IMG/VR virus record: IMGVR_UViG_3300042847_000001
Coordinates: 1 to 25,090 of that record
Source: a virus
Taxonomy: Duplodnaviria; Caudoviricetes
Length of the DNA stretch: 25,090 nt
Reading direction: 5' to 3' (one strand)
The notes below the pieces were generated by a model. It was not told the DNA's origin. It worked only from the letters and a program-made list of their open reading frames with translations, and ran no database searches. Below are positions 1 to 21,175 of the stretch, one piece after another (the stretch's first letter is position 1; every line of letters starts with the position of its first letter). A program made the position numbers and the translations under genes.

Positions 1-103
1 AGATCGAACGGCTTCAATTGCTGCACCCACAGAATTCACCGCCAAGCACCACTGAGTGACGCTTCGCGGTGCATTCCGCACCAACTTCCTGCAGGAGTTA
101 TCT

Positions 104-796
104 ATGAGAAAACTACTTTTTGCTACCACCGCGTTAATCGCATTGTCCGGGGCGGCGCAGGCCGATATTGTTCTGGATACCACCGGCCAAGGCGGCACCG
201 GCAACAACGTTATCTTCTCTAGCATTGCCAGCAGCCAGCTTATCCTTGGCAAGCTGAATGGACAGAATGACGAAGTCGTTCGTTTCTTCGACGTTTCTGC
301 CAGTCAGGGTTTTTCCGGCTCTGCCAACGGTAACGACATCAAAATCGTGAACACGAGGGATTTGGATATCACGGTTTTCGACAAGACCAACCTGACCCAG
401 CTTGGTATCAACAGAGACATCTTTAGTCTGAAGGGTGACGGTCAAGTGTTCTTCCGCGTCACCGCGCTGGAGGCGGACGGCACCTTCAAGACCTTCAACT
501 ACACCAACCTTGCAGGAGGTGTGGCAGGACTTGGGGGTGGCGGTTACACACTCGGCAACGGCCAGAGCGGATTTGATTTCAAAGCCATCAATGGCGAGAG
601 CATCTGGGATCTGGACCTGTTCGTTTCCGCGAACGGTCACATCACTGACTTCGAACATTTCAGGATCGACGTAGCCCCGCAGATTGCAGCAGTTCCGGAG
701 ACAAGTTCGTGGGTTATGATGATCTTGGGCTTCGCTGGCGTCGGTGGTCTGGCGATGCGTAAGCGCCGTCAGGGTCAGCAGCTCCGTATCGCGTAG
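104..796 (+). CDS. Secreted protein with PEP-CTERM (PEPxxWA-type) C-terminal sorting signal, 230 aa
   Basis: ATG at 104 follows AGGAG (93-97). N-terminus MRKLLFATTALIALSGAAQA-D is a Sec signal peptide with an AxA site. C-terminus VPETSSWVMMILGFAGVGGLAMRKRR matches VPE motif + Trp + transmembrane helix + basic cluster. The GTG at 56 in the ORF track is a less likely start. Confidence 0.85.
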   Translation: MRKLLFATTALIALSGAAQADIVLDTTGQGGTGNNVIFSSIASSQLILGKLNGQNDEVVRFFDVSASQGFSGSANGNDIKIVNTRDLDITVFDKTNLTQLGINRDIFSLKGDGQVFFRVTALEADGTFKTFNYTNLAGGVAGLGGGGYTLGNGQSGFDFKAINGESIWDLDLFVSANGHITDFEHFRIDVAPQIAAVPETSSWVMMILGFAGVGGLAMRKRRQGQQLRIA

Positions 797-1649: not shown

Positions 1650-1694
1650 TCACCGCGTCGCGTTGGCGTGCAGCCACGACCGGAGTTCGGTCAT
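1650..1694 (-). other. 14-codon mini-ORF MTELRSWLHANATR, possibly a truncated paralogous 5' end or translational relay
   Basis: Its ATG overlaps the tailspike stop (TGATG at 1692-1696) and its stop ends 4 nt before the ATG at 1645. W7 and N11 align with W7 and N11 of the downstream 78-aa protein. Confidence 0.35.
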
Positions 1695-3781
1695 CAGACC
1701 ATGCACAGTGTGAAGTTGTCGGCGGGACCAACCGTGGAGGACCAGTAAACCTGCCCTGTCGTCATTCCCGCCGCCACCGCTGCCGTCCGGTTGGCGTAGG
1801 TAGGCAAGCCCAGCAGCGCAAAGTGCGAGCCGCCGCCGGAAGCAGATGATCCATAGACACTGTTGGGCAGCAGCACCATTTGTTCTGCCGTGCTGGAATT
1901 GGCTAATAGCGCCCCGGTCGTGATGCTATTGCCTCCAACCACCGCGCCCCTGACATTGGTCTTGTTGGCGATCGCGCCGGAAAAGTTAATGGCAGCAGCG
2001 AACGACTCGAAGAAATTGCCGCAGATATGAACGCCGCGAACCCCTCTTTGTTGGGGGTCGCCACTCACCAAGCCTGCACCGCCGATGTCGATGGCAATCG
2101 AGCCTGCGCTGCCGCCGAAACGATTACCTGTAATCGTCAGACCGCTGCCCCATTGAGCGACGATCCATTCGCCGGCGGCGGACGCATCGCCCCACCAGCA
2201 TCCGGAAATAGTAAGACCAAAAAACGGCTGACTTGAACTGGTGATAATGCCCCACGGCTTTAAGTCAGTCCCCGCCTCGAACACACATCCAACAAAACTG
2301 ACAGCTTCGCACGATCCGTTGATCGGATGCTGCGTGCCGGGGCGAAAGATGCAATTGATGAACACATGACCGTTGACGAACCCAACGGCTGCAATCTGCT
2401 GCATGTGAACGTGAATGCCAGGACCGAAAAAATGAACCCCGATAAAACGTCCGTCTGTCGCGCCGTGAAGCTCGAGCAGAACCGACGACGCGCCGTAGGA
2501 AAAAAGCGTACAGTCCTCAATGCACATGAAAATAGCGTCGGTGCCGGGCGTGACCACGGCACTGCTGCCGTAGCTTATAAACGTTCCATTGAACGCGCTG
2601 TTCAGATTACCCATCTGCAACCCGTGAAAACTGGCGTTGTTAGTGCCTCGGCAATTGATCGCCGGATTGTCGGCACCTATGGCCCCCGCCGTGGAGTAGA
2701 ACATCGCCCGCTGATCCGCGCCCGCTCCCTGCCCGGCACCCTGAACGCCCCTGAACCTGATAAAATCCTTGCCATGCAGATCAAGCGTTGTGAAATTCAC
2801 ACGGCCTTGCAGAATGATCTCGCCGCCTTCTGCGGGCAGCGCGTCGATGATGGCTTGCAACGCCGCGGTATAGTCGGCGCCCAGGCCGTCAACCCCGAAC
2901 CACGCCGCGTCGGTGGTCGGCCCGCTCATGTCGAGTTGCCACCAATGGCCGCCTGCTTCCTGGAATGCCATCGGGCCGCCGCCCGCGCCGACCGGGATAT
3001 ATGTTGCATATGCCAGCGGAGATGTCGTCGCGAACCGCGTGATTTTGATGGCCTTGACGCCGACCGGAATAGTCGCCGCTATTGCCTGCGCGCGGGTGTC
3101 GTACTGGTGCACCTGATTGCCAAGCGCAGCCGCTGCCGCCGCTGCCGCATCGGCAGAATCCTGCGCCGCATCGGCAGCAGCCAGCACGTCATCAAGAACA
3201 CCGGTGGCATCCACCGGCATCGAAACCATAACGTGATAGTGGTCGACCTGCCACACCATCAGCACCGGAATGTTGGGCAACAGCGTATTGGCGGCAAGCG
3301 ATGCCCCGAGCGCGTTTCGTATTTCGAAAGCGCCTGATCCATTGACGTTGATCGTGGTCGGTCCGGTATTGGCAATCGTCGGCGTCAGCAGATAGAGCTT
3401 GTCGCCGGGAACAGTCGGGGTTTCGAACGAGGTCGCCAGGATGTTATTGGCGGTGCCTCCGGTGACGGTAAGGCGAATGACATCGTTCGGGGTATCGCCG
3501 ACGCGCGCCCACGAACCCGAACCACTGGCGCCGGATTTCTGGTAGATGCCGTTATAGGCCGGGTTCGGGTCGGCGTAGACGATCGCCAGCGTGTTGGCGG
3601 CGTGGTTAAGGTCGGCATACAGCAGCGCCCGCGTCGCATAGCCGAGGCCAACCGAACCGAACAGCGACTCATACATGCCGAGCAACGCGCGAATTTCCGC
3701 CTTGATCGGCTTGTGCGGGCCACTCGCCGGAACGCCTGTGGTTTCGTAATCGCGATAAACCTCGGCCGCTGTCTGCGTCAT
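1694..3781 (-). CDS. Tailspike / receptor-binding protein with C-terminal pectin-lyase-like right-handed beta-helix, 695 aa
   Basis: N-terminal particle-attachment region, Ala-rich helical linker (AAADAAQDSADAAAAAAAA), beta-helix cap motif (AAWFGVDG...DYTAALQAIIDALPAEGGEIIL), then repeated beta-helix rungs (IEDCTL, FINCIF, FVGCVF, ISGCWW, ITGNRF, ICGNFF). ATGA overlap with the upstream gene. Confidence 0.8.
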   Translation of the reverse strand: MTQTAAEVYRDYETTGVPASGPHKPIKAEIRALLGMYESLFGSVGLGYATRALLYADLNHAANTLAIVYADPNPAYNGIYQKSGASGSGSWARVGDTPNDVIRLTVTGGTANNILATSFETPTVPGDKLYLLTPTIANTGPTTINVNGSGAFEIRNALGASLAANTLLPNIPVLMVWQVDHYHVMVSMPVDATGVLDDVLAAADAAQDSADAAAAAAAALGNQVHQYDTRAQAIAATIPVGVKAIKITRFATTSPLAYATYIPVGAGGGPMAFQEAGGHWWQLDMSGPTTDAAWFGVDGLGADYTAALQAIIDALPAEGGEIILQGRVNFTTLDLHGKDFIRFRGVQGAGQGAGADQRAMFYSTAGAIGADNPAINCRGTNNASFHGLQMGNLNSAFNGTFISYGSSAVVTPGTDAIFMCIEDCTLFSYGASSVLLELHGATDGRFIGVHFFGPGIHVHMQQIAAVGFVNGHVFINCIFRPGTQHPINGSCEAVSFVGCVFEAGTDLKPWGIITSSSQPFFGLTISGCWWGDASAAGEWIVAQWGSGLTITGNRFGGSAGSIAIDIGGAGLVSGDPQQRGVRGVHICGNFFESFAAAINFSGAIANKTNVRGAVVGGNSITTGALLANSSTAEQMVLLPNSVYGSSASGGGSHFALLGLPTYANRTAAVAAGMTTGQVYWSSTVGPADNFTLCMV

Positions 3782-5001
3782 TGTAGAGCTACCTTCTCGG
3801 TTGTTACTTGAGCTTTCAGCGCGTCAATTTCTTGCTGCAACAATTGGCAGTGCGCGATCAGATAGGGGACGGCCTTGCTTAAGTCGGTCATCCATAATTC
3901 CGTGGTTGAGCTACTCAACTCCAGCCCTTCGTTGCTGTCCCCCTGCGTAACCATGCGGGGCAGCACTGAATAGGCCTCTTGCGCCAGCAACCCGACGCCC
4001 TGGATCAAATTGCGCTCATCATCGTGGTCCCACACCTGGAGGGCGCAAATCGTGTCACGCGCGTCCTCCAGCGCCAGCGGCTGGCGGTAGGTTTTCCCGC
4101 GCTCGTCTGACGATGTATTGAAAGTTGTGGTATGCGCGCTCTGATCGATGTTGATGGAGCCGCACTGAATATCGGCCGACGTGCAGAAATCAAACGCGCC
4201 CGCTAGCCCGGTTGTACCTGGCCCCCTGAAGGCAACGACATTGCCACCTGTCGCTATCAGGAGAAAACAAAAAGCGCCCGCCCTCCCCAGGCCTCCCGGC
4301 TGTGAAATCTGGAACATGCCGGTTGAGTTGGAACTAAGCCCCGCCACATTGCTGGCGGGCAAATACATGCCATTGGCCGGAATGGCAGAGCTTGTGACGT
4401 TGACATTGTTGGCTGTCGCAACGCCGATATTAGGCGTCACCAGTGTAGGCGACGTGGCACGAACGAAGTTGCCTGTGCCGTTTGTCGCCGTAAATGTCGG
4501 AACGCCAGACGCAAACAGCGGAACACCCGACTGCGCGCTGATGTCCGCGCCAAACCCGCCGCGGGCCGGCGCCAGTGTCCCGTTCCATCCCACCGTGATG
4601 CTGGTTGCCTGCAACAGCGCAATGCTGGGCGTGCCGCCCAGCGTCAGGGTGACGTTGGTATCGCTGGCTCGCGTCAGGGCAGCAGGCGTCACGCCACCGC
4701 TACCGATGTGTGCGTCCACATAAGCCTTGGCCGCCTTTTGCGTGGCAATTTTCAAGTCACTGTTGGCCGCCAGCGTCACGTCGGCGTCGATGACGCCGGC
4801 CGCAAAGTTGGTTGTCACAAGACTGGAAATGGTATTGCTGCCGGCGCTGATGCTCTTGCCGGTCAGCGTTTGCGGCAGCGATGCCAGCCAGGCCGCAATC
4901 GTGCTGAGGAGAATGCCCCAGTTGCTACCGGCGGCGGCGGCGGCAATCTTTTCCGATCCGTCAGGTGTCCGGTCGGGATCTTCGCTTATCTTGCCGGTCA
5001 T
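3778..5001 (-). CDS. Tail fibre protein with C-terminal intramolecular chaperone (peptidase S74-like), 407 aa
   Basis: C-terminus NTSSDERGK...GLLAQE...PRMV...DLSKAVPYLIAHCQLLQQEIDALK matches the S74 pattern (SDxRxK, GxxAQE, terminal coiled coil). Fibre-type motifs IATQKAAKAYVD and ATSPTLVTP. Confidence 0.8.
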   Translation of the reverse strand: MTGKISEDPDRTPDGSEKIAAAAAGSNWGILLSTIAAWLASLPQTLTGKSISAGSNTISSLVTTNFAAGVIDADVTLAANSDLKIATQKAAKAYVDAHIGSGGVTPAALTRASDTNVTLTLGGTPSIALLQATSITVGWNGTLAPARGGFGADISAQSGVPLFASGVPTFTATNGTGNFVRATSPTLVTPNIGVATANNVNVTSSAIPANGMYLPASNVAGLSSNSTGMFQISQPGGLGRAGAFCFLLIATGGNVVAFRGPGTTGLAGAFDFCTSADIQCGSINIDQSAHTTTFNTSSDERGKTYRQPLALEDARDTICALQVWDHDDERNLIQGVGLLAQEAYSVLPRMVTQGDSNEGLELSSSTTELWMTDLSKAVPYLIAHCQLLQQEIDALKAQVTTEKVALQ

Positions 5002-10089: not shown

Positions 10090-10500
10090 TTACTCTGCTG
10101 AATATTCTTTGATGCGTTTGGTGATCTTGCGCCGCATCGCCGAGCGCATTGACTTTTTCATCAGGCGGTAACTAGGAAAAAAGAACGGTTGCGCGGCGAC
10201 GTGCTCGGTGCCGAATTCGACCGCGCGTGCGTAGTCATAGGATTTGCCGCCGCCGCCCTGGCGCGTCGTGGTCGGCCCGCCGGCCTTGATGACCACGACA
10301 GTTGATTTTTTGCCTGGTTCGATGCGCAGGGATTTGGCGAGCTCGCCGGTCGGCCCATGCTTCACCGCGGATGCCATCACGCCGACCAGGGACGCTGCTT
10401 GCGCGTTGAGCTCGGCGAGCGCGTCGGCATAGATGTCGCGCTGCAGATCCACCGTCAGCTTGCGAAACGCCATGACGCTCTTGTTAGGTGCCCTTGCCAT
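10090..10500 (-). CDS. HK97 gp10-like tail component, 136 aa
   Basis: TGELAKSL...YDYARAVEFGTEHVAAQPFFFPS motif characteristic of the HK97-gp10 family. Confidence 0.8.
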   Translation of the reverse strand: MARAPNKSVMAFRKLTVDLQRDIYADALAELNAQAASLVGVMASAVKHGPTGELAKSLRIEPGKKSTVVVIKAGGPTTTRQGGGGKSYDYARAVEFGTEHVAAQPFFFPSYRLMKKSMRSAMRRKITKRIKEYSAE

Positions 10501-10756: not shown

Positions 10757-11115
10757 TTTCCCACCGGGTCGTCAGGCGGTCCGAACATCGCGAACTGCAG
10801 CACGGTGCGCGCGGCAGGCATGCTGTTGAAATAGGCCCGACCCTCGACGTGGCGCTTGACCAGGACGAGCGCGCGGTCGGCTTTCATCCCGCCACCGATG
10901 AGGCCAAGCCGTATCACCTCGCGCACATCGTGCGGCCAGGCGTTGCCGTCGAGCATGGCGCGCAACAAGCCCATCGGTCCCAGCACTGGCTCACCGATTT
11001 CGAGCCGGTGCTTGTTGATGCTCTCCTGCAGTTCGCGCCATTGCCCGAACGCGATGCGGAACGTGTGTTCCTCACCGCCGAATTCGAGCGTAACCGAACC
11101 GTCCTCGCTCGACAT
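10672..11115 (-). CDS. Tail assembly chaperone (GTA-gp10-like family), 147 aa
   Basis: ATG 11115 overlaps the tail tube stop (TAATG). ...F.I.FGQWRELQE...GP...DVREVIRLGLIGGGM...A..LV..HVE motif. Directly after the tail tube gene. Confidence 0.75.
   Translation of the reverse strand: MSSEDGSVTLEFGGEEHTFRIAFGQWRELQESINKHRLEIGEPVLGPMGLLRAMLDGNAWPHDVREVIRLGLIGGGMKADRALVLVKRHVEGRAYFNSMPAARTVLQFAMFGPPDDPVGKEPTPATPDETANSDPSGALNTTGSVLQ
10756..10762 (-). other. Programmed -1 ribosomal frameshift slippery heptamer G GGA AAA
   Basis: Plus-strand TTTTCCC at 10756-10762 reads GGGAAAA on minus, in the X XXY YYZ register of the chaperone frame (codons ...GTG GGA AAA, V-G-K). Confidence 0.75.
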
Positions 11116-11552
11116 TATGGAATTACCTCGGGAACAACGGCCCCGTCGGAAACGATGGCAACCGACATCTGCACCTTGTTGCCGCGCTCGGCGTTGATGG
11201 TGAATTCCTGCAATTTCGCCGGCATGATCCAGGCGTATTCGACAGGGTTGCCAAGTTCGATGCGAACGTTGCGGGTTTCGCCGGCGTTCCACCAGTCTTC
11301 CCACGTCGCAAAACTCTCCTCCGCCACGACACCCTCGCCGGCGATCGCGCCCTGGTACGAAACGACATCGCGGCCGAGCCAGGACGGCGCATCGGGATCG
11401 TCGCAGTCGGGAATGTTCGTGTCGTTGAGGTTGGCAGTCCGCGTGAAACCTTTTGAGGTCAGGCCACAGGGATCAGTGAACACCTCGGGCGCGGCTCCGT
11501 CCCCGATCTTCACCAGGAACTTGCTGAAGGGATAGGTGGTGGCTTGGGTCAT
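11115..11552 (-). CDS. Major tail (tube) protein, 145 aa
   Basis: FLVKIGDGAAPEVFTDPCGLTSKGF...IPDCDDPDAP.W...SDG.V motif typical of Phage_tail_2/TP901-1-like tube proteins. SD GGAG upstream. Confidence 0.85.
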   Translation of the reverse strand: MTQATTYPFSKFLVKIGDGAAPEVFTDPCGLTSKGFTRTANLNDTNIPDCDDPDAPSWLGRDVVSYQGAIAGEGVVAEESFATWEDWWNAGETRNVRIELGNPVEYAWIMPAKLQEFTINAERGNKVQMSVAIVSDGAVVPEVIP

Positions 11553-11568: not shown

Positions 11569-11602
11569 AAAAAACCCCGCTCTCGAAATCGAGAACGGGG
11601 TT
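11569..11602 (-). terminator. Rho-independent terminator-like hairpin between the GH9 gene and the tail tube gene
   Basis: Minus strand reads AACCCCGTTCTCGA-TT-TCGAGAGCGGGG-TTTTTT: long stem with one G-U pair, followed by U6. Confidence 0.75.
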
Positions 11603-11637: not shown

Positions 11638-14600
11638 TCAGGTGTTCCCGTCCCAGCCGTGCAGGTACAGTTGCGTGGAAATCGTGTTGCATTGAACCAT
11701 CAAGCCAAACTCGGACGTGTAAATGATCAGCCGGTTTTCCGGCTGCCATTCCCAGAACGACGAGCCGAGCCGCCACGGGTTCCACATCTTGGCTGACCCC
11801 GGTGTGGCGGCCCCTTCGTAAAGACCGCTGGTGTTGTCGGAGTTCATGAGAAGTGTGCCATCTCCGCCGACGTCTCCGATACCTCTAAAGTTATTGAACA
11901 TGCGCGCCTTGGCGTATCCCTGATAGCCGAAGGCAATAATGCCATCGGGCGTCGGAGCGCCGTACTTGAAAGCGTCTTCGTGCAGCGTGGCGGTAAACGA
12001 CCGGAAGCCGGTCCCGGTCTGGAATGATTTGTTGGCGAAGTTCGCCCCGATCTGGGCCGATGCGCCCGCCTGCATCATCTTCAGATAGTTCGAGCTTCGC
12101 GCGCCCGGCGCAGCCGCTGTGTTTGCCAAGACATACAGCATATGCGCCGTGATTGCTTTCTCAGGAGAGGCGAGATCCATCATACCGATCCGCGCCGGAA
12201 CAGGGACGACATCGAAGTACATCCCCATGTAGCCCATCGCGGAGTTCAGGTTGATTGCCGGGTTTCCGTTGTCGTAATTTGCGGGCAGCACCATCGCCGC
12301 CTTGATCGTCGCGTTGCACCCCGGAGTGGCGGCATACTCGACACACCCTCGCGTAGCGCCCAGATACAACTGCCAGAACGGCAGGGAGCTGAAGTTGAAC
12401 GTTGCTCCCGTCCCCGATCCAGTCGTGCTGCCCTGTCCTATCGGGTTTGCCTTGGTTGTCGTGTACTGCCCTATGGTGACTTGCCGGGCGGCTGTGATCA
12501 CACCACCGCTGACGGCAGTCACCATCACCACTGCATTGATATCGACGCCCGTCGAGCCTGTGGCTGTTATTGTAATGAAGTCATTGACGGCGTAACCGGA
12601 GCCACCGAAGGCCACCGACGATAGCGGGTCGAAGATGCTGAGCGTTTTCTTTTCAAGGGTGTCGCCATACGCCTGCCCCGACACCGGCCCGTTAAGCAGG
12701 CGGTACAGCGACGCAGCAGCATGAAACTTCTCCGGTAACGCGCGATCAGTGAGCACTTGAACGGCTTGATTATACTGGGTCGTTGTCCATCCCATTTTGG
12801 CTTGCAGGTTGAGCGTGCCGTTGTAGTAAGTGTTTCGCGTCGTGACATTATTCATGAGGCTGTCCGCCCACGCATAGGCGGCAATGGCCGACGCCTTGTA
12901 GGTGTCCCCCAGCGTGGTGAGGCCGTAGTCATAGGCAATCTGTGCAAGCTGCGCGGCGAGACCGGCGTACATCATCGTGGTCAGATGATCCGGCGCATAG
13001 GCGAACGCCATGACAGTCTGTCCCGTCAACGAGCCATAAGCATTCGTCCCGTGATACTTGTCGATGGTCTCGGGATAATCAGCTACCTGGCTCTCAAATT
13101 TCCCGTAGCCCGTGCCGCCCCATACCGCGCCGCTTCCCAACTGCCCCTGCCGGTATTGATCGGCATACCAGAACAACTCATGGAACAGCGGCGGCTTGTC
13201 GTCGGTGCCAGCAAACAGTGTTGGGTTTAGCAGCGTCGTTGACAATGGCACCGTGTAGGGCGTGACGCGCGACGCTTGCGGGATATTACGAAATGCCAGC
13301 GCGAGAAGATGATAGCCGGGAAAATGATCAACAGCGAGGTCGTCGTTGTCGCCCGCGTCCTGCACGGCGGCCTTCGTGCCGGTTCGTGTCGATGTAACAA
13401 AACCGGTTAGAACCTTGCCCACCGAAACATCGGCGGCAGCAAGGACCTGACCGCCCATGTCCCAAGTAAACGTGTTCGTCCCGGTCGAGCGGGCGATGCC
13501 TGCGGTAAAGTTTCCACCCTGAACGGTGTTGTAAAGAGTAGGGGTAAAGCCAATCGGCTGAATGGCAAAATCAGTCCCGTTCGGAATGCCGTGCGGGACA
13601 GTGGTCGTAGCCAGCACCGTCCCCGCCGGACAAGTCATACTGGAAAGCGTCAGCGTGCCATGATCGGCATATGCCCCCATGCCCGCAGTGGCAATCGTAC
13701 CCCCCGCAGGATAATACGCCGACCCGCCTTCCGAGCAGAACGTGGCGACCAGCTTGCTCTGATAGTTGGTGCATCCATTGACGCCGTCGGCAACTGCAAC
13801 ACCGCGCGAGTAGCCGTTAGTGGAGTTGACCGCGCAGCCAAGCCGAAGATTGAACAGGCCTTGATGTGACTTCCCCGCAGCAATCGCCCACGCATTCGAC
13901 TGAATGAGAAAGGGGTCGCTGATACCGTAGCCGGGAATGTAGATGTAATGCGTCCCGCTGGTGGATGGCGTCCAACCGCTGAAATCCAGCCCGAACACAA
14001 ACGTGCCCGCGCGGTTGGTGTTGAAACACTTGAACACTTTGTTGTTGATGCCGCCGAGCGCCGTCGCGAAATTTGTCGTATTGGCAAATGTCGTGTAGCC
14101 GGTTGTGTTGAGATCGATTGTGAAACTCACTCCCGCAGTAACGGGAGCGATTACCTTCAGTCCGATCCAGTACCCTTCGCCGCCCGGCGGGATTAATTCG
14201 AAATCACAAATCTCCGTCATGCCGTTGATGCCAGCAAATCGCACCCTGTCGTTGACAACGAAGTCATGACCGGCACACGTCACCAATGCCGTCGTGGCCT
14301 TGGAAATCCCCGTCACCGAGAAGCCATGCGACATGTCGGCGACGTCGATACCGTTGTCATAGCCTTCCCCGACGGCCTTTGCAGCACTGCAACGTTGCAC
14401 GATGCTGCCGGTGTACACCGTCGCCTTGGCGCTGTTCAGTATCTGGAAGCTGGTCTTGCCGTAGGTGTTGATGAAATCGACAGTGCCTTGGTTGGCCCCG
14501 CCGGGAATACGCATGGCGAGGTATCCGTAACGCAGGGTGTCGTTGGGACGCTGTCCCACCATGTTGACCTGAATGCCGCTCGCGCGGATCATCTTGTCGT

Positions 14601-15102
14601 TGTAGGTGAACGTGAAGGGCAGGAACGTTTTTGGCGCGCTGTTCGAAATCGTAATGACATCGCCGTTCGTCGGCACCGCCGCCAATTTTATGTAAATCGT
14701 GTGCCGCTGCGTGAGCATGTACTCGCTGCCGGGCGAATGTGTCTCACCTTGTCCAATGCTCTCGTCACGACAATAGACAGCCTGCTTGGTTGCGCCGCTC
14801 ACTGTGTAGTTGGCGATGTTGCGCAGCGCCATCTTGTCGAGATAACCCAGCGGATTAGGCTTGTCGGAGTAGCGCACCTCGGTGCGGTTGATGCCGATTG
14901 GCATACACCACTCCAGCACGCCGCTGACCGGATTGGTCCGCTGAAACCATGTGCCATAGGCATTGCCGCTGAACGTCCCGGTCTCGATGTTGCCGGGAAT
15001 GATCGGCGGATCGTCTCTCGAAAATGCAATGATATCCGGCGCGGCCATCCACGGCGATTTCGCGTTCAGTCTGGCGGGAGTGTCGAAACTCAGGATGCTC
15101 AT
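11638..15102 (-). CDS. Glycoside hydrolase family 9 (cellulase-like) protein with N-terminal Ig-like domain and three inserted beta-rich modules, 1154 aa
   Basis: CelD-N-like IQVNMVGQRP and GLDFSGW...GTHYIYIPGYGISDPFLI...GLFNLRLG. GH9 motif I QDAGD (13348-13359), helix motifs ELFWYADQYRQGQ..GAVWGG and YKASAIAAYAWA, motif II IGANFANKSFQTGTG...LH, candidate catalytic acid in YTSEF (11710-11712). No signal peptide seen. Confidence 0.75.
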   Translation of the reverse strand: MSILSFDTPARLNAKSPWMAAPDIIAFSRDDPPIIPGNIETGTFSGNAYGTWFQRTNPVSGVLEWCMPIGINRTEVRYSDKPNPLGYLDKMALRNIANYTVSGATKQAVYCRDESIGQGETHSPGSEYMLTQRHTIYIKLAAVPTNGDVITISNSAPKTFLPFTFTYNDKMIRASGIQVNMVGQRPNDTLRYGYLAMRIPGGANQGTVDFINTYGKTSFQILNSAKATVYTGSIVQRCSAAKAVGEGYDNGIDVADMSHGFSVTGISKATTALVTCAGHDFVVNDRVRFAGINGMTEICDFELIPPGGEGYWIGLKVIAPVTAGVSFTIDLNTTGYTTFANTTNFATALGGINNKVFKCFNTNRAGTFVFGLDFSGWTPSTSGTHYIYIPGYGISDPFLIQSNAWAIAAGKSHQGLFNLRLGCAVNSTNGYSRGVAVADGVNGCTNYQSKLVATFCSEGGSAYYPAGGTIATAGMGAYADHGTLTLSSMTCPAGTVLATTTVPHGIPNGTDFAIQPIGFTPTLYNTVQGGNFTAGIARSTGTNTFTWDMGGQVLAAADVSVGKVLTGFVTSTRTGTKAAVQDAGDNDDLAVDHFPGYHLLALAFRNIPQASRVTPYTVPLSTTLLNPTLFAGTDDKPPLFHELFWYADQYRQGQLGSGAVWGGTGYGKFESQVADYPETIDKYHGTNAYGSLTGQTVMAFAYAPDHLTTMMYAGLAAQLAQIAYDYGLTTLGDTYKASAIAAYAWADSLMNNVTTRNTYYNGTLNLQAKMGWTTTQYNQAVQVLTDRALPEKFHAAASLYRLLNGPVSGQAYGDTLEKKTLSIFDPLSSVAFGGSGYAVNDFITITATGSTGVDINAVVMVTAVSGGVITAARQVTIGQYTTTKANPIGQGSTTGSGTGATFNFSSLPFWQLYLGATRGCVEYAATPGCNATIKAAMVLPANYDNGNPAINLNSAMGYMGMYFDVVPVPARIGMMDLASPEKAITAHMLYVLANTAAAPGARSSNYLKMMQAGASAQIGANFANKSFQTGTGFRSFTATLHEDAFKYGAPTPDGIIAFGYQGYAKARMFNNFRGIGDVGGDGTLLMNSDNTSGLYEGAATPGSAKMWNPWRLGSSFWEWQPENRLIIYTSEFGLMVQCNTISTQLYLHGWDGNT

Positions 15103-15103
15103 G

Positions 15104-16951
15104 CTACCAGTTCCCGAAGCCTGCTGGAGGTGTCATCGCATAGGCGCTGTCCCCGAAATTCCCCACAAAGGTATCGCCAGTTATTTCCAGTGTTGTCATC
15201 GGGAAATACGGCCCGGCATTCAACGTCGCAAAGCTGATGCCTCCGACGCCTGTCGCTGGATTGTTTGCCGCGTTGTTATTCCAGTTCAGACTGGCATTGT
15301 GCCGGAACCAGATCAGCTTTGCATCGAGGTCGACGGCTATCGCTGCGGTGTTACCGGGCGCAAATGTCTGAATGGTCGCGATGTTGGAACTGTTTATGTA
15401 GACAGCTCCCCGCCAGCAAATACTGTTAAGGTCAGGCCCGCCGCCAAGGGCAGCCAGATTTGCACTGGCATTACCAAAACCGACGCCTTGCCCGTCAGGG
15501 TTCATAGCGGCAAAGGTCAATTCAAAATAGTATTTGCCGGTGGACCGCCCGCTACCGCTGCCGAGCATACCTGCGTAGAACGTACTGGCTGAGATCGATC
15601 CCGTCAGCTTGTCGGCTGACAACGTAATTGCAGCGACCTTCCTCGCCGGGTCCCAAGTAATGCTCGTCCCCGCCTGCACCCATGTCGCCTGAGTGACGCT
15701 GGACTGGTTGCCCGCCAGATCCTCATGCATGTAATAGGCATAGCGCGTGCCCGGTGTGATGCCGGTCGCCGTTGCAGTCTTCGCGCCGGTCGCGGAGATC
15801 GTTTGCGATCCGGCATAGATCGCCGCCGCGCCGGTATTGTTCTGCCCCGCCTTGACCTGTGCAGCGGTGGGGAACGTCGCGCTGCCCGTAACGACGTAGT
15901 ACAGCACGCCGTTCGCTTCGTTGGTCGTCACCGACAGTGTCGCCGTCGTCGGCGCGAGCAGCACGCCACCAGCCGAAGTCAGTACCGGCGCTGTCGGGTC
16001 CACCACAACGACGAGTGCGTTTGACGGACTGCTGGTGGACGCCCCGCGCTTATGCGTGACGGTCACTGAATTGCTGCCACTCGCGAGTGGCGTGGACAAC
16101 GCGATAATTCCTGTCCCCTCTTCGTAGCCCGTAACCGTGTGCGACACGAGCAGGACCCCACCAACGCGAACCTCGATGACATCGTTTTCAAGCGGCACAT
16201 CAACGCCCCAGTCGACGTTGAGATCGGGCGTTGTGTTATTTGTGATGTTGTCGGTGGATGAACTGCCGCTATCGGTAGCCGTCGTCAGCGAGATCAAGGT
16301 CGGCGTGGAAATGGTGCCTGGTGCACCGGCAAGCGTCGTAATCGTAAAGGTGTCGGACACGCCGCCAATCGTCAGCACGACATTGACCGCCGTCGAGTTC
16401 GACGCTGACGACGTGCCCCGCACCTTGACGGTAGCCCCGGCCGTGACACTGGTCGAGGTCGAGGCATAGCTGCCACCGTTGATTGAGTATTCGCCACCCG
16501 TGATCGTCATCGTGGCCGGCCCGTCGATCCCGGCGACCGTGATGGTGTTACTTTCAGTAACAGTGGAAAGCGCCGCCCCTGTCACGTCGGTGAAGCTGAA
16601 GGCGTTCGGCGTGGTGTCCTCGACCACGTTAATCACCGTGATGACGATCGTGCGGGTGATCGGCGCGCCGCCATTGGTGGCTGACACCGTTATGGTGTGG
16701 TTGGTCGCAGTCTCGTAATCCAGCGCCGCGGCGGTGTTCAGGTTTGTGCCATTGGTGCCTGCGGTGGTGAACTTGCCACCGGCGCTGTCGGTCAGCGTGA
16801 ATACATAAGTACCGGTCCCTCCCGCCACCGACAGCGTCGTGATCGTGGTGCCAATAGCCGCGCTTTCCAAAACGCTGGCATTGGTGATTTCGATCACTGG
16901 ACCGGTAGCGGCAGCTGAGCGCGCGATCAGACCGGCGCGGAATGAGACCAT
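15104..16951 (-). CDS. Multidomain adhesin-like protein: cadherin + Ig-like + FN3-like + C-terminal SPRY/ConA-like domain, 615 aa
   Basis: Cadherin signature (V.ESAAIGT...LDYET...ITVINV.E); DTTPNAFSF Ig-like module; bacterial Ig signature DSG...DNITN.TTP; APVL...TTNE.NG.LYYVV...EDLAGNQS module; SPRY-like WDP...ITLS...STGKYYFE...AVDLD...IWFR...YFP...NFG...PPAGF. Thr/Ser/Gly rich. No clear signal peptide. Confidence 0.75.
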   Translation of the reverse strand: MVSFRAGLIARSAAATGPVIEITNASVLESAAIGTTITTLSVAGGTGTYVFTLTDSAGGKFTTAGTNGTNLNTAAALDYETATNHTITVSATNGGAPITRTIVITVINVVEDTTPNAFSFTDVTGAALSTVTESNTITVAGIDGPATMTITGGEYSINGGSYASTSTSVTAGATVKVRGTSSASNSTAVNVVLTIGGVSDTFTITTLAGAPGTISTPTLISLTTATDSGSSSTDNITNNTTPDLNVDWGVDVPLENDVIEVRVGGVLLVSHTVTGYEEGTGIIALSTPLASGSNSVTVTHKRGASTSSPSNALVVVVDPTAPVLTSAGGVLLAPTTATLSVTTNEANGVLYYVVTGSATFPTAAQVKAGQNNTGAAAIYAGSQTISATGAKTATATGITPGTRYAYYMHEDLAGNQSSVTQATWVQAGTSITWDPARKVAAITLSADKLTGSISASTFYAGMLGSGSGRSTGKYYFELTFAAMNPDGQGVGFGNASANLAALGGGPDLNSICWRGAVYINSSNIATIQTFAPGNTAAIAVDLDAKLIWFRHNASLNWNNNAANNPATGVGGISFATLNAGPYFPMTTLEITGDTFVGNFGDSAYAMTPPAGFGNW

Positions 16952-16965
16952 GGTCTAAACTTCTC

Positions 16966-17373
16966 TCATGTGGGTTCGGTCCAGGCGTGCACGGTGACCA
17001 CGGCGTGCGCGGTAATGCCGTCGGGATCGCGCATGTACTGGATCTGCTCGATCGAGAGCTCGATCAGCCGCTGGCCGTCGATGACGATCTCGGCGCGGTC
17101 GAGATCGGACGCGATGGCGGCGCCGAGCTGCTTGACCTGGACGGTGTCCGGCCCGGCCGCCCAGCCGTCGAGCGTCATGAACACTTCGCCGCCATCGAGA
17201 CAGTCGCCGTGCTCGGGCAGCATCTGGAACGGCCCGAACGACACATAGGGTTTGACCGCGCTGCCGGGCACGCCGTCGTAAATCCGCCCGCCGGTCAGCG
17301 CGCCGGTCTCGCCGGCCTTCATGATCGACAACGTGCCTTTCTGCATCGCCAGCGCCGGATCGGAATAGCTCAT
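16966..17373 (-). CDS. Tail completion / terminator protein (DUF3168, gp17-like), 135 aa
   Basis: DPALAMQ...GGRIYDGVP....PYVSFGP...RDPDG.TAHAVV motif. ATGA overlap with the head closure gene. Confidence 0.85.
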   Translation of the reverse strand: MSYSDPALAMQKGTLSIMKAGETGALTGGRIYDGVPGSAVKPYVSFGPFQMLPEHGDCLDGGEVFMTLDGWAAGPDTVQVKQLGAAIASDLDRAEIVIDGQRLIELSIEQIQYMRDPDGITAHAVVTVHAWTEPT

Positions 17374-17741
17374 ACCGCCACCCCGGTTTCGGCGATCATC
17401 TCGATCCACAGCCCGTGCCGGCTGTCGCCGATCAGCGGGTCGATCGCGGTGCGGATATTATATTCTCGGCCCTCGCCGTCGGTCGCCCGCCAGTCGGTGG
17501 TGATCAGCCTGGTGTCCGGCGACTTGCGCACCCGGATCAGGACGGGCTGGCGGCCGGCCAGCCGCGCCGCGTCCACCGCCTCGCCGCCGAGCTTGGCAAT
17601 GATGTTGGCCGACACCGTGAAGCGGTCGACCCAGCCGCCCGACACGTTGCCATACTCGTCCTGCGTGGTGTCGCGCTCGGCGAACGTCACCCGATAGCGC
17701 AGGTCGCCCGCGCCGCTAACGCTTGCGAGGCCGGAAGGCAT
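17370..17741 (-). CDS. Head closure / head-tail adaptor (SPP1 gp16-like), ~123 aa
   Basis: AGDLRYRVTF......DEYGN...W......A.I...GGEAV.AARL.G.QP..IRVR...I...WR...YNI motif. Start uncertain (ATG 17741 chosen). Confidence 0.8.
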   Translation of the reverse strand: MPSGLASVSGAGDLRYRVTFAERDTTQDEYGNVSGGWVDRFTVSANIIAKLGGEAVDAARLAGRQPVLIRVRKSPDTRLITTDWRATDGEGREYNIRTAIDPLIGDSRHGLWIEMIAETGVAV

Positions 17742-17934: not shown

Positions 17935-18476
17935 CAGCACCTCGGGAACCAGTATGTGCTGATGACATCGGTCATCCAGCCCGGCGATTGCGCCTCGGTG
18001 CCGGCGACCAGGATCTCGCGGTTCTCGTACAGGTGCGATGTGTAGCGCAGGATGGCGTCGGTAATGCCGGGGTCGAGCTCGTCGGCGTCGGCATAACCAG
18101 ACGGGATGCTGACTGCCATGCCGGCGGCGTATGGCCCGACCAGGCAATACAGGCCGACGCCGTGCGTAGACATGGTCTCGACCATGTAGTTTCCGGTCAC
18201 GTCGCCATCGACATCAACCGTGACATCGTTCACCGGCGACACCGGAACCGTTGCAACACTGTCGCAAAAATTAGCTTCATCGGGCGACCAGGTCCACGTC
18301 ACCGGGTTGACCGATACGTTGGTGACCCGCTCAAACCAGTTGATGGCCCGCTTGATGGCGTCGGTGATGTAGGCATCGTCATAGGTGCCGTCGACGCGAA
18401 GATGGCTTTTGACGATCGGCAGCAACGCTTCCGGCAGCACGGTGCGGTCGAGCCCGGTGGATGCGATCGCGCTCAT
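17934..18476 (-). CDS. Head-tail connector (HK97 gp6-like), 180 aa
   Basis: VKSHLRVDGTYDDAYI...I..A...ER.T and C-terminal I..AILRY.SHLYENRE motifs. Confidence 0.85.
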   Translation of the reverse strand: MSAIASTGLDRTVLPEALLPIVKSHLRVDGTYDDAYITDAIKRAINWFERVTNVSVNPVTWTWSPDEANFCDSVATVPVSPVNDVTVDVDGDVTGNYMVETMSTHGVGLYCLVGPYAAGMAVSIPSGYADADELDPGITDAILRYTSHLYENREILVAGTEAQSPGWMTDVISTYWFPRC

Positions 18477-19093
18477 GCCATCACCTGGCGGTAGTAGCGT
18501 TCGATCACCGGCATCAGGTCGCAGGACAGCACCGAGCCGTCGGAGCGCAGCAACATCAGCGTGGCGTCCGCAATCGTCATTTCCTCGATCCCGATCCCGT
18601 CGGCGCCGCGCTCGCCCCTGGCCCCGCGCTCGCCGGCCGGCCCCTTTTCCCCAGGCCGCCCCCGCACCCCCTTGGCACCCAGCATCCAGCCCGGCCCCGG
18701 CAGTTCACCGGGGTCGTCCTTCACCGCCCGCCATTCGCTGCCGTTGTGGCTGACCACATCCATGGCCCGATACTGCGCCGACGCATCCCAGAGGCCCCGC
18801 GCCTCGCCGGGATAGGCATCCAGCCCGCGCTCGCCTTGCGGTCCCGGTTCCCCTGCCGGCCCAGGCGGCCCGATATCGCCCGCCAGCCCGCGCGGCCCGG
18901 GATCGCCCACCGGCCCGCGCTCGCCGTTCTGGCCCCGCTCGCCGGGCTCCCCGGCAGGCCCCGGCATCCGCACCAGGTTGCCGTACTCGTCAATCAGTTC
19001 CGCGACCCTGGCTTCCAGCTCCACCCTGGCATTGCGTTCCGTCGCCAGCACCTCGCCGACGGCGGCGATAATCGAGCTATGATCAAGCTGCAT
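18473..19093 (-). CDS. Collagen-like protein with central CBM5/12-like aromatic module, 206 aa
   Basis: N-terminal coiled coil, 16 consecutive Gly-X-Y triplets, RGLWDASAQYRAMDVVSHNGSEWRA module, then ~10 more Gly-X-Y triplets. Confidence 0.8.
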   Translation of the reverse strand: MQLDHSSIIAAVGEVLATERNARVELEARVAELIDEYGNLVRMPGPAGEPGERGQNGERGPVGDPGPRGLAGDIGPPGPAGEPGPQGERGLDAYPGEARGLWDASAQYRAMDVVSHNGSEWRAVKDDPGELPGPGWMLGAKGVRGRPGEKGPAGERGARGERGADGIGIEEMTIADATLMLLRSDGSVLSCDLMPVIERYYRQVMA

Positions 19094-20471
19094 GGCTATC
19101 CATGGTCCGCTGTAACAGGAACCGCGCGTAGGCTTTTGCCTCTTCCGGATCCGGCTTGTCGTCCTTGGGATCCTCGGCGTCGGGCGGCGGCAATGCCGGC
19201 GCCGGCGCCGGCCTGGTCAGCGCCTGGTCCCATGCGCTCAACGGGACGACCTGCTGCTGTACCCGGGGTTCGTTGCCGTCTTTTGCCGCCGGCAGGCTTT
19301 CGTGTGCCCTGGCTTCATTCGGCGAGAAGATGCCGCCCTGTACCGCCCGGGCCAGGCCGTCGATGCGGTCCTTGAATGCCGAACGCAGCAGGATCGAGCT
19401 GTCGAGTTCCGAATATTCGCCGACCGCCTTGGACAGCCCGAACAGCCGGTCGATCGCCAGCTCGACCTGGTTGAGGGCAAAGCCGAGGCCGCCGCCGATC
19501 CAGAAATTCATCAATGCTTCGGTCGAGCCCATTGGCTGCGCCTCGCTGCCGATGATCGCCAGCGGTACCCGGAACACGGCGGCGATCTGCTGGTCGCTCA
19601 TCTTCTGCGCCTCGGCGAACTGGGCGTCGGCCTGTGAAACGCTGATCGGCTGGAACTTCAGCCCCGAGGTCAGGATCGGAGTGCCGCCGGCCGCAAGTCC
19701 CCTGGCCTGCTCGTCCCACCGGCCGCGCAACTGGTTGACCTGTTCCGGCGTCAGCACCATGTCGGTCTGCAGGACACCGGATGGCCTGGACTGGTTGCCA
19801 TAGAACGCGATCGATTGCGCCATCATGGCATTGCCGGCACCGACCGCCAGTGCGGCCGCGGTCAGCGGCGTGTCGCCGATCAGGACATGACGCGGCGTAT
19901 GAAGGCGGATGTGCAGCACGTCGCGCGCCGGCACATAGCTGAGTTCGTCGAGCTCGAGCGCCTCGATGCGGCCATCAATCACGTCGTTGCCGCCGAGCTT
20001 GTAGTAGATCTCGCCGCCGATCACCTGTGGCTGGCATTGCCGCGGATGCATCAGGTGCAGCGACGATATCTCAAACCGGTCGTTGCGCAGCGCCAGCGCG
20101 TAGGCATTGCCGTCGAGGTAGAGCGAGCGCACCGCATTCAATAAAAAATCGCTGATGGTCTGGTAATCGTTCGGGCTCCGCAGGATCCGCGACAGCGCCG
20201 AGGTGGTGATGCGCTCGCGCCCGCCATTGCCCTGCTCGCGCCAGTGACTGCCAGGGCACATGGCGATCGTCTGTGCGTAGGCCGAGACGCAGGCTTCCAC
20301 CATTGCCGACGTGGCGCCGCCAGACGGGTCGTAACCCATCTGCCAGAAGTTCATGTATTTACCGACACTCGCGGGCAGCCAGCCGTCCATGGTCAGCCAC
20401 GGACCGTCGCGGTAGGCACCCTCCGCAGCCTTGGTGCGGAAGGCGTCCGTGATCCGGGTCAGCAGGTTCAT
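19083..20471 (-). CDS. Phage portal protein (HK97 family), 462 aa
   Basis: VEACVSAYAQTIA..P, PNDYQT..DF....SL.LDGNAYA, DVLHIR, FYGNQSRPSGVL, IAAVFRVP, GIFSPNEARAHE.LP motifs. Confidence 0.93.
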   Translation of the reverse strand: MNLLTRITDAFRTKAAEGAYRDGPWLTMDGWLPASVGKYMNFWQMGYDPSGGATSAMVEACVSAYAQTIAMCPGSHWREQGNGGRERITTSALSRILRSPNDYQTISDFLLNAVRSLYLDGNAYALALRNDRFEISSLHLMHPRQCQPQVIGGEIYYKLGGNDVIDGRIEALELDELSYVPARDVLHIRLHTPRHVLIGDTPLTAAALAVGAGNAMMAQSIAFYGNQSRPSGVLQTDMVLTPEQVNQLRGRWDEQARGLAAGGTPILTSGLKFQPISVSQADAQFAEAQKMSDQQIAAVFRVPLAIIGSEAQPMGSTEALMNFWIGGGLGFALNQVELAIDRLFGLSKAVGEYSELDSSILLRSAFKDRIDGLARAVQGGIFSPNEARAHESLPAAKDGNEPRVQQQVVPLSAWDQALTRPAPAPALPPPDAEDPKDDKPDPEEAKAYARFLLQRTMDSHAA

Positions 20472-21175
20472 GTCTTGGGCTGTGGCCTTGCCAGACGGCC
20501 TGGCGCGCGTGTTTCGTAATTACCAGCCGGCGCGCCCCCTTGCATCGCCCTTTGGTTATGGTCGCTATTGCGCTTCTCGCGCGCCTGCCGCTGCTCGTCG
20601 GTCTCGTTTCGCTGCGGCTTGCGCTTCGCCTGGCGTTCCGTATTGCGCTTCTGACGGCCTTCATTGCGCATTTCACGCTCCCGCCGTGCGTCCCCGGTTT
20701 CACCTTCCGGCGCAGGCTCGTCGGGCTCTTCCGGGTCGGCTTGCGCCTGCGCCCAGGCATTGGCCGCTTCTATCGCATAGGCGCGGTCCTCGTCGGTCAA
20801 TTCATGGTCGTGATCGACAAGCGGGTTGTTTTCGGCATCAAACGAAGAAGGTATGTCGCTCATATTAATCGCCCAGTGACTATCCTTGGCGTCCTCGGCC
20901 TCCGCGTCGGGCATCGTCAGCACGGTATGACGATACGGCCCGACGATGACCCACATCGCCCTGGTGCCCTCCATCCCGACAGGCTGTGTCACCAGTTGCT
21001 CGGCAGGGATCGGCCGCGATGCATTGGCTGCGATATCGGCGGCGACCTTGGCGTTAGCCTCCGCGCTGGCGTCGTCCTCGCCGGCGGCCCGCGGTGCGTA
21101 AGCGGCGGCTACTGCCTCGGGCGGAATCCTGGCACCCTTCGGCGGCGTCGGTAGATCGGGTTGCTTGTCTGCCAT
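20468..21175 (-). CDS. Hypothetical protein, acidic centre and Arg/Glu/Gln-rich C-terminus, 235 aa
   Basis: Co-oriented ORF filling the capsid-portal gap. GGAG upstream. Stop overlaps the portal ATG (ATGA). Confidence 0.65.
   Translation of the reverse strand: MADKQPDLPTPPKGARIPPEAVAAAYAPRAAGEDDASAEANAKVAADIAANASRPIPAEQLVTQPVGMEGTRAMWVIVGPYRHTVLTMPDAEAEDAKDSHWAINMSDIPSSFDAENNPLVDHDHELTDEDRAYAIEAANAWAQAQADPEEPDEPAPEGETGDARREREMRNEGRQKRNTERQAKRKPQRNETDEQRQAREKRNSDHNQRAMQGGAPAGNYETRAPGRLARPQPKT

Follow-up and report, generated by a model that had tools for sequence, protein, structure and literature searches.

The window analysed here, a 25,090-nucleotide (nt) stretch covering positions 1 to 25,090 of IMG/VR record IMGVR_UViG_3300042847_000001 (Duplodnaviria; Caudoviricetes), is a partial virus record with a siphophage late operon on the minus strand. 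Two genes, here termed A and B, occupy the site between the tail terminator and tail tube genes (the slot). The operon runs from terminase through a fused protease-capsid gene, portal, a collagen-like gene, adaptor and head closure to the tail terminator, and continues with A, B, tail tube, chaperones, neck protein, tape measure, distal tail, hub and two fibres. Features of the locus, with lengths and residue positions in amino acids (aa), are as follows.

16966–17370, minus strand: tail terminator, 134 aa, upstream edge of the slot (Pfam PF11367, Tail_completion_gp17, 6e-25; PHROG 176)
15104–16951, minus strand: gene A, 615 aa, proposed stalk/adhesin (open reading frame, Pfam, profile matches)
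16913–16951, minus strand: first 13 codons of A, a peptide tag kept at the start of the first cargo gene in relatives with otherwise unrelated cargo
16625–16879, minus strand: cadherin-like domain of A, aa 25-109 (PF00028, 6e-6; protocadherin 5szn, 2e-7)
15998–16315, minus strand: Big_13 Ig-like domain of A, aa 213-318 (PF19077, 2e-9)
15152–15535, minus strand: SPRY-like (ConA-fold) C-terminal domain of A, aa 473-600 (PF00622, 0.0025, below cut-off)
11638–15102, minus strand: gene B, 1154 aa, predicted divergent glycosidase with the fold of glycoside hydrolase family 9 (GH9) (AF2, Foldseek, VIA, profile)
14020–14334, minus strand: FCCH-like beta-barrel insert of B, aa 257-361, inside the Ig domain (VIA Z 12.2, 4p22)
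13348–13359, minus strand: DAGD motif of B (D582, D585), GH9 catalytic-base motif (aligned to DAGD of CelD)
12379–12654, minus strand: beta-insert of B, aa 817-908, weakly like T4 gp18 sheath domain I (3fo8, E 0.016)
11710–11712, minus strand: E1131 of B, likely catalytic acid (Glu in 119/122 sequences)
11573–11602, minus strand: 13-pair hairpin with T-run in the tail tube leader, downstream slot edge (sequence)
11115–11552, minus strand: tail tube protein, downstream edge of the slot (PF06199, 3e-15; PHROG 13196)

The two open reading frames (A, 16951-15104; B, 15102-11638) are co-oriented and meet at the junction TAG-C-ATG. Gaps of 14 nt between tail terminator and A and of 85 nt between B and tail tube were measured, and both flanking assignments of the initial annotation, to tail completion (terminator) and tail tube, were confirmed by Pfam and PHROG; the terminator was scanned as the longer reading frame 16966-17409. 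The cassette lies apart from the tail-tip fibre genes (1694-5001), as had been described. Likewise, no evident signal peptide was seen on B (crude hydropathy 1.3) or, by eye, on A, with no dedicated signal-peptide predictor used. No sigma-70-like promoter was found near 16951 by a scan that covers no other promoter types, and the short gaps (14 nt and 1 nt) with no promoter in view suggest co-transcription with the late genes. The GC content at third codon positions (GC3) of the cassette, 0.72, is like that of the other tail genes of the phage. Hairpins similar to that of the tail tube leader were recognised by eye in 8/8 filled and 12/23 empty close relatives; the hairpin therefore belongs to the slot edge and not to this cassette. 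An assembly artefact was rejected, since a second contig (L008) has identical gene order and unaltered pieces occur in other soil runs. The labelled data sets that also hold window DNA are soil metagenomes, and no RNA data sets were among the matches listed. Among cultured phages, a Bradyrhizobium phage gives the best tail tube match (54%), which makes a rhizobial-type host likely, in line with the initial annotation; 10 of the 14 records matched are Rhizobium, Sinorhizobium, Bradyrhizobium or Mesorhizobium phages.

Gene B alone gave no GH9 match in Pfam, NCBIfam or PDB sequences, no tblastn match among 50,697 cultured-phage records and no full-length match to viral structures in Foldseek. Its family comprised 19 proteins by word search and 175 clusters at E<=1e-30 by profile, for most of which genome context was not recovered. 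A 122-row family profile matched CelD at 9e-37 with the DAGD and His motifs aligned, a conserved His before 'ED' coinciding with the PH-DR motif of CelD. A first AlphaFold model of B (19 rows; predicted local distance difference test score, pLDDT, 69) was replaced by one from a 71-row alignment (pLDDT 92.3; predicted template modelling score, pTM, 0.93), which matched CbhA (1ut9) in Foldseek at 5e-16. The best match in the second-look VIA search reached Z 25.2 with a root-mean-square deviation (rmsd) of 3.8 over 525 aligned residues. The top 42 VIA rows were all GH9, including xyloglucanase, xanthanase and glucosaminidases, at 12-19% identity throughout. The GH9-like enzyme proposed by the initial annotation is thus upheld by the family profile and by structure, the model matching Ig-bearing GH9 enzymes. 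Of the two Pfam families that had been suggested for B, Glyco_hydro_9 gave no match with B itself, and CelD_N (PF02927) was found only in relatives (8/19 close relatives, E up to 1). Because B falls below the curated Glyco_hydro_9 cut-off (PF00759, 27.7 bits), which 20 of 35 chosen wider relatives pass, it is treated as part of a divergent GH9-like subfamily and not as a strict Pfam GH9 member.

The model of B comprises an N-terminal beta-domain without family, an interrupted CelD_N-like Ig domain and an (alpha/alpha)6 barrel with beta-inserts. Across the 122 rows, D582 is retained in 118, D585 in 122, H1041 in 87 and E1131 in 119; the columns of D582, D585 and E1131 belong to the few that hardly vary in these sequences of about 25-30% identity. 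In the GH9 layout, the catalytic acid is a Glu near the C-terminus, and E1131, which lies close to the C-terminal end of the superposed barrel, is likely this acid. B is accordingly predicted, from the model, to be an active GH9-fold glycosidase with intact-looking catalytic residues; GH9 enzymes are inverting beta-glycosidases. The structural match of the CelD_N-like Ig domain starts at aa 169-175, and the domain is interrupted by the FCCH-like insert (rmsd 1.5 to 4p22, 78 aligned), which also has a weak PHROG 584 major-tail match (E 0.008). The two other beta-inserts are aa 480-575 and the gp18-like region, where PF22639 was found in 2/19 relatives. For the N-terminal domain (aa 14-175), only leads under 0.9 were obtained (Atlas). 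No cellulose-binding module was detected in B; two close relatives carry an SGNH esterase fused to the enzyme. With its alpha-barrel, modelled B departs from the trimeric right-handed beta-helix of a classical tailspike depolymerase. Many signal-less family members (P0154, P0169, P0175, P0189, P0201, P0209, P0229 and others) have, at one end or the other, a short tag that resembles a beta-strand and is rich in basic and hydrophobic residues, a candidate docking strand.

In gene A, an N-terminal basic/hydrophobic tag is followed by cadherin-like, Ig-like and Big_13 domains, a beta-domain without family and a SPRY-like lectin domain. The cadherin, Ig and SPRY parts of the domain string in the initial annotation were retained, the cadherin match scoring 27 bits against a Pfam cut-off of 28.8 and the SPRY-like match also lying below its cut-off (TRIM9 SPRY, E 0.32); FN3 was not confirmed, the best hint being an adnectin at E 0.4. 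The SPRY-like domain is a candidate glycan binder. The stretch aa 213-318 plus aa 319-427 is the part commonest among A-like neighbours of B. A had no PHROG match and no beta-helix match in the Pfam scan. A motif scan for its N-terminal tag returned 3 loci, all among relatives already gathered. Rhizobium phage P10VF_112 (L135:5968-6327) encodes a cadherin domain on its own that resembles the first domain of A and carries a short basic tag at its N-terminus; this gene adjoins terminase in cultured Rhizobium myophages and offers a testable model for the tag of A.

For comparison of the slot, loci with the two flanking genes were collected (102 after de-duplication; the first fetch took the best 80 of 158), and 88 of them hold both flanks. 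Relatives with a tail tube at least 74% identical were classed as close (n=31) and the others as distant (n=57); their contigs come from few samples and include near-copies, so that the counts are not independent. Among the close relatives, 23 have a flank gap of at most 100 nt (empty) and 8 hold 3.9-8.8 kb of other cargo; of the distant ones, 44 are empty, 12 show a gap of 100-1500 nt and a single one holds 5.1 kb. The two tail genes are thus normally adjacent, as had been stated, and the insertion here goes beyond chance. The cassette is optional, the site serving in general for the exchange of varied cargo. None of the 8 filled close relatives carries B. Their common plan is an Ig/lectin gene, then a large gene, often followed by a gene of 142-148 aa. 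By Pfam, the large gene encodes a BNR-propeller (L102/L104), an SGNH protein (L039/L042) or a DUF1996 protein (L053); in L022/L038/L044 no Pfam family was found.

L022, the nearest relative, follows the window with 91% identity as far as 16914, through the first 13 codons of A, and matches it again from 11577, which places the exchange point just after these codons. Starts similar to this peptide occur in L022, L053, L111, L027, L029 and L041. A second slot, from adaptor to head closure, holds similar cargo with a similar N-terminal peptide (L027, L029, L041, L054), and a further slot, between head closure and terminator (L035), carries a cassette of this kind with such a peptide. A relative-like contig (X8) joins across the slot, a weak hint with a 30-base side. 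Two families of large proteins among the slot cargo, A6 (L038, L044, L021, L027, L039) and A7 (L022, L029, L041), have little or no Pfam coverage and no PDB sequence match; their conserved motifs presumably resemble those of TIM-barrel glycosidases. A thioredoxin plus DUF1996 gene pair is also found as slot cargo (L053:3731-5358, L049:249-1810) and may serve disulfide handling of fibre parts.

In relatives, the cargo is tied to the tail terminator, which together with the general nature of the slot goes beyond the initial annotation. Five of the eight filled close relatives (L039, L042, L044, L102, L104), and L105 as well, have a terminator extended by 36-48 residues whose C-terminus is the first half of an Ig domain; the second half opens the following gene, which overlaps the terminator stop. 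The halves match aa 143-176 and 178-234, or the earlier Ig copy, of an intact protein, with two different break points. The split Ig is of A9/AIR9 type (for example L039:1131-1646) and is also listed for L101; from the sequences, it is possibly a case of fragment complementation or the relic of a fusion. In L114 (6742-9021), the terminator is fused in frame to a repeat-bearing cargo of >620 aa that is open at the contig end. These links suggest mounting of the cargo at the neck. The nearest named clusters of the 142-148 aa third cargo gene are those of the GP4 fibre gp80 (0.86, lead only), Pfam Gp80/Gp77 matches were found in L066 and L006, and the 148-aa gene had no PDB sequence match. A known virion fibre part, gp80 is of a type whose dimers assemble into chain-like fibres through beta-strand augmentation (PMC13730344).

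Relatives of B sit at structural positions of unrelated phages. Of 11 loci that look non-cellular and include upstream DNA, 7 have an A-like gene within two genes upstream of the B relative: three behind a portal (L002, L003, L007), two behind tail fibres (L004, L005), one between adaptor and terminator (L006) and one behind a virion protein (L017). Two single wider-family proteins used as queries returned no further phage loci. A gene run between adaptor and terminator in L006 (3776-14419, G003) and L011 (606-5959) has several Sec- or twin-arginine translocation (Tat)-like N-termini, also on the A-like and B-like genes; these look like exported proteins encoded within a structural module.

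Cellular copies of the family were rare in the genomes searched: an order-level sample around one cellular match held it in 6/401 genomes (centre genome included), and family- and class-level samples only in the centre genome (1/401 each). All six begin with signal-like peptides (by eye) and are surrounded by glycosyltransferase genes, with Wzx and/or Wzy-like genes in the neighbourhood; two adjoin XrtD-type exosortase genes. No cellulose-synthase subunit family was among the Pfam matches of the 61 + 15 proteins scanned at these loci. One copy, L018 (9935-12940, G001), carries a Tat-like signal, adjoins an insertion sequence element in an exopolysaccharide (EPS) cluster, and alone of the six nests in the phage-rich clade near B (42% in the best segment); a phage-to-host return is possible. 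One further feature of the window lies outside the cassette.

56–796, plus strand: PEP-CTERM-like secreted protein, antisense to the late genes (NF035944, 1.5e-7, 31.1 bits against a cut-off of 35)

PEP-CTERM proteins need a host exosortase, and this gene hints at an exosortase/EPS system in the host. Similar proteins, also antisense to late genes, are encoded in L004 (13550-14080) and L005 (13404-14030, 15514-16311). As the six cellular relatives lie in Wzx/Wzy heteropolysaccharide clusters and the phage encodes a PEP-CTERM-like protein, the likely substrate of B is host exopolysaccharide, probably one with a decorated beta-glucan backbone, and the cellulase function of the initial annotation was not supported. 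GH9 includes xanthanases, or xanthan-backbone endoglucanases (PMC10881899), so that a decorated beta-glucan EPS as substrate reconciles fold and context.

Taken together, we favour, at a probability of about one half, a swappable late-operon cassette in which A is a neck-docked Ig/cadherin stalk and B a GH9-fold glycosidase on this stalk that cuts the exosortase-linked EPS of the host. Late co-transcription and coupled translation of A and B would be followed by docking of A at the neck, from where its Ig/cadherin stalk with the SPRY-like tip would extend. B would ride on A or beside it, A-B binding being presumed, and is predicted to hydrolyse host Wzx/Wzy-type EPS by GH9 chemistry, by which the virion would reach the cell surface; the tail-tip fibres would then bind the true receptor. 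A wider version, which we regard as rather doubtful, is a 'neck toolbox' in soil rhizobial phages, in which interchangeable Ig stalks would dock behind the tail terminator and each display one of a range of glycan enzymes, with split-Ig complementation, in-frame fusion and short peptide tags as the proposed docking modes. Among these enzymes would be an unrecognised GH9 clade (the 175 clusters), exchanged with the exosortase-linked EPS clusters of the hosts and specific for that floc-forming polymer; some phages would export parts by the Tat route, and these would join the virion after lysis.

Several observations weigh against the stalk-borne, EPS-cutting enzyme. The terminator of the window is unextended (134 aa), so that docking would rest on the short N-terminal peptide of A, and this kept peptide could merely mark the recombination point. 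L038 has a second Ig half without the first, and a split-domain link is thus not required. The placing of A and B in the virion derives indirectly, from terminator fusions in relatives, and 4 of the 11 loci (L011, L015, L016, L019) have no A-like neighbour. Twin-arginine-like N-termini are present on both genes in L006 and on B in L011, and a crude pattern found Tat-like starts in 20/137 family rows, scattered over the tree. In a FastTree tree, 5/6 cellular relatives fall outside the clade of the phage proteins (116 rows, mostly signal-less), and specificity may therefore differ. The PEP-CTERM figures come from B-carrying contigs alone.

The Tat-like N-termini on phage relatives fit export rather than cytoplasmic virion assembly and keep alive a model in which A and B are not virion parts and are released at lysis as a free, lectin-targeted EPS depolymerase that loosens the floc or biofilm matrix. 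This model, which would also suit the variable position of the cassette among phages and the unextended terminator of the window, is considered unlikely in view of the terminator fusions and split Ig domains of close relatives, the gp80-like genes in the same slot (lead only), the lack of a signal by crude test in 105/137 family rows and the resemblance of the small beta-inserts of B to tail and sheath surface domains. Somewhat less probable still is that the enzyme, virion-mounted or released, acts on true cellulose, either host biofilm fibrils or plant-surface glucan. The closest solved folds are indeed the cellulases CbhA, CelD and J30, the host is likely rhizobial, and a precedent exists in the GH5 enzyme of Erwinia phage S6 (PMC9544554). 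Against cellulose stand the 12-19% identity to cellulase structures with xyloglucanase, xanthanase and glucosaminidases in the same match lists, the Wzx/Wzy setting of the cellular relatives with no cellulose-synthase subunit family in the proteins scanned, and the failure to detect a cellulose-binding module in B.

Two further explanations were rejected. That the pair is a lysogenic-conversion moron or auxiliary metabolic gene, which benefits the lysogen by remodelling its matrix or using carbon and takes no part in infection, is very improbable. The related phage L005 does carry an integrase together with PEP-CTERM genes, the cellular relatives act inside EPS clusters, and an active auxiliary metabolic gene of the GH9 family has been reported from a rumen virus (PMC10465536). 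However, A starts 14 nt behind the terminator stop with no sigma-70-like promoter of its own, the cassette is co-oriented within the late operon with a GC3 like that of the other tail genes, and a cytoplasmic glycosidase with no signal peptide could not reach EPS in a lysogen. As for a terminator of its own, a hairpin is present downstream of B, and similar ones occur in 12/23 empty relatives. The least credible explanation makes B a binding scaffold without catalytic activity and the pair no more than an adhesin: B itself lacks a Pfam GH9 score, and together with its closest relatives deviates from the common family motif just before DAGD, whereas D582, D585 and E1131 are near-invariant across the 122 divergent sequences.

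Compared with the Ig-bearing GH9 enzymes of known structure (CbhA 1ut9, CelD 1clc, J30 5u0h, BoGH9A 6dht, PspXan9 6fhn), B has the same CelD_N-like Ig domain and (alpha/alpha)6 barrel (Z 19-25 over about 500 residues), DAGD motif, His motif and C-terminal Glu. It differs by its identity of 12-19%, its score below the Pfam cut-off, the extra N-terminal beta-domain and three beta-inserts, the absence of signal peptide, dockerin and carbohydrate-binding module, and its location in a phage structural operon.

Among phage systems, the cassette may by analogy work like the S6 enzymes and the neck passage structure (NPS) of lactococcal 936-group phages, being a member of neither. Erwinia phage S6 encodes the cellulases gp094 (GH48) and gp095 (GH5), with activity on cellulose shown, and these resemble the cassette as non-beta-helix phage glycosidases with Ig-type N-terminal domains, in a polymorphic region, directed at a host matrix polysaccharide; no terminator-linked slot is described in the text covered (PMC9544554). 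The S6 enzymes belong to other families and to an N4-like podovirus instead of a siphophage, and activity of B is predicted only. The 936-group NPS is optional (73/113 phages), ancillary to the receptor-binding protein, and combines a constant N-terminal part with interchangeable carbohydrate-binding or pectin/alginate-lyase-like C-terminal parts (PMC6669499). Like the NPS, the slot offers interchangeable glycan modules on an optional gene of the neck region. It differs in that the NPS is a single trimeric coiled-coil protein, whereas here a cassette of two to four genes provides an Ig stalk and a separate large enzyme, the host is Gram-negative and the neck location is only presumed. The chain-like fibres of GP4 / VP1 / A1002 podophages are accessory, rely on beta-strand augmentation and split-domain complementation between neighbouring genes, and are not described as carrying a glycosidase in the text available (PMC13730344); gp80-like genes (lead) occur in sister cassettes and none in the cassette of the window. 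The rumen viral GH9 auxiliary gene, like B, lies on a viral contig; it is 79.5% identical to a Ruminococcus cellulase and a recent host-type gene (PMC10465536), whereas the clade of B is divergent, mostly lacks signals and sits within structural modules. GH9 is also listed among soil-prophage carbohydrate-active enzymes in PMC13507307, the supplements of which may list members of the B clade. A literature search with little coverage of subscription papers and supplements found no description of a GH9 virion appendage, this clade, this slot or Tat-exported phage structural cargo; two matches were discarded as irrelevant ('GH9' being a strain name in PMC6690015, and PMC4468916 dealing with GH90).

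Elsewhere in the late operon of the window, an HK97-gp10-like neck gene (10090-10500) stands behind the tail chaperones and not before the terminator in this lineage. A collagen-repeat protein with a weak CBM5/12 match is encoded between portal and adaptor (18473-19093), and an acidic/basic 235-aa gene without family match lies between capsid and portal (20468-21175).

If the favoured reading is true, an (alpha/alpha)6 GH9 enzyme and a modular display site at the level of the neck would join the known routes of phages across polysaccharide coats. Exosortase-linked EPS would be named as the likely target, and candidate enzymes for the analysis of that EPS would be supplied. The split Ig on the tail terminator of relatives provides a directly testable idea of assembly. 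The clade is missed by a plain Pfam scan of B and has no match in cultured phages, and thus forms a reservoir of glycosidases yet to be characterised; in soil viromes, GH9 genes may then serve infection rather than act as auxiliary genes of carbon cycling.

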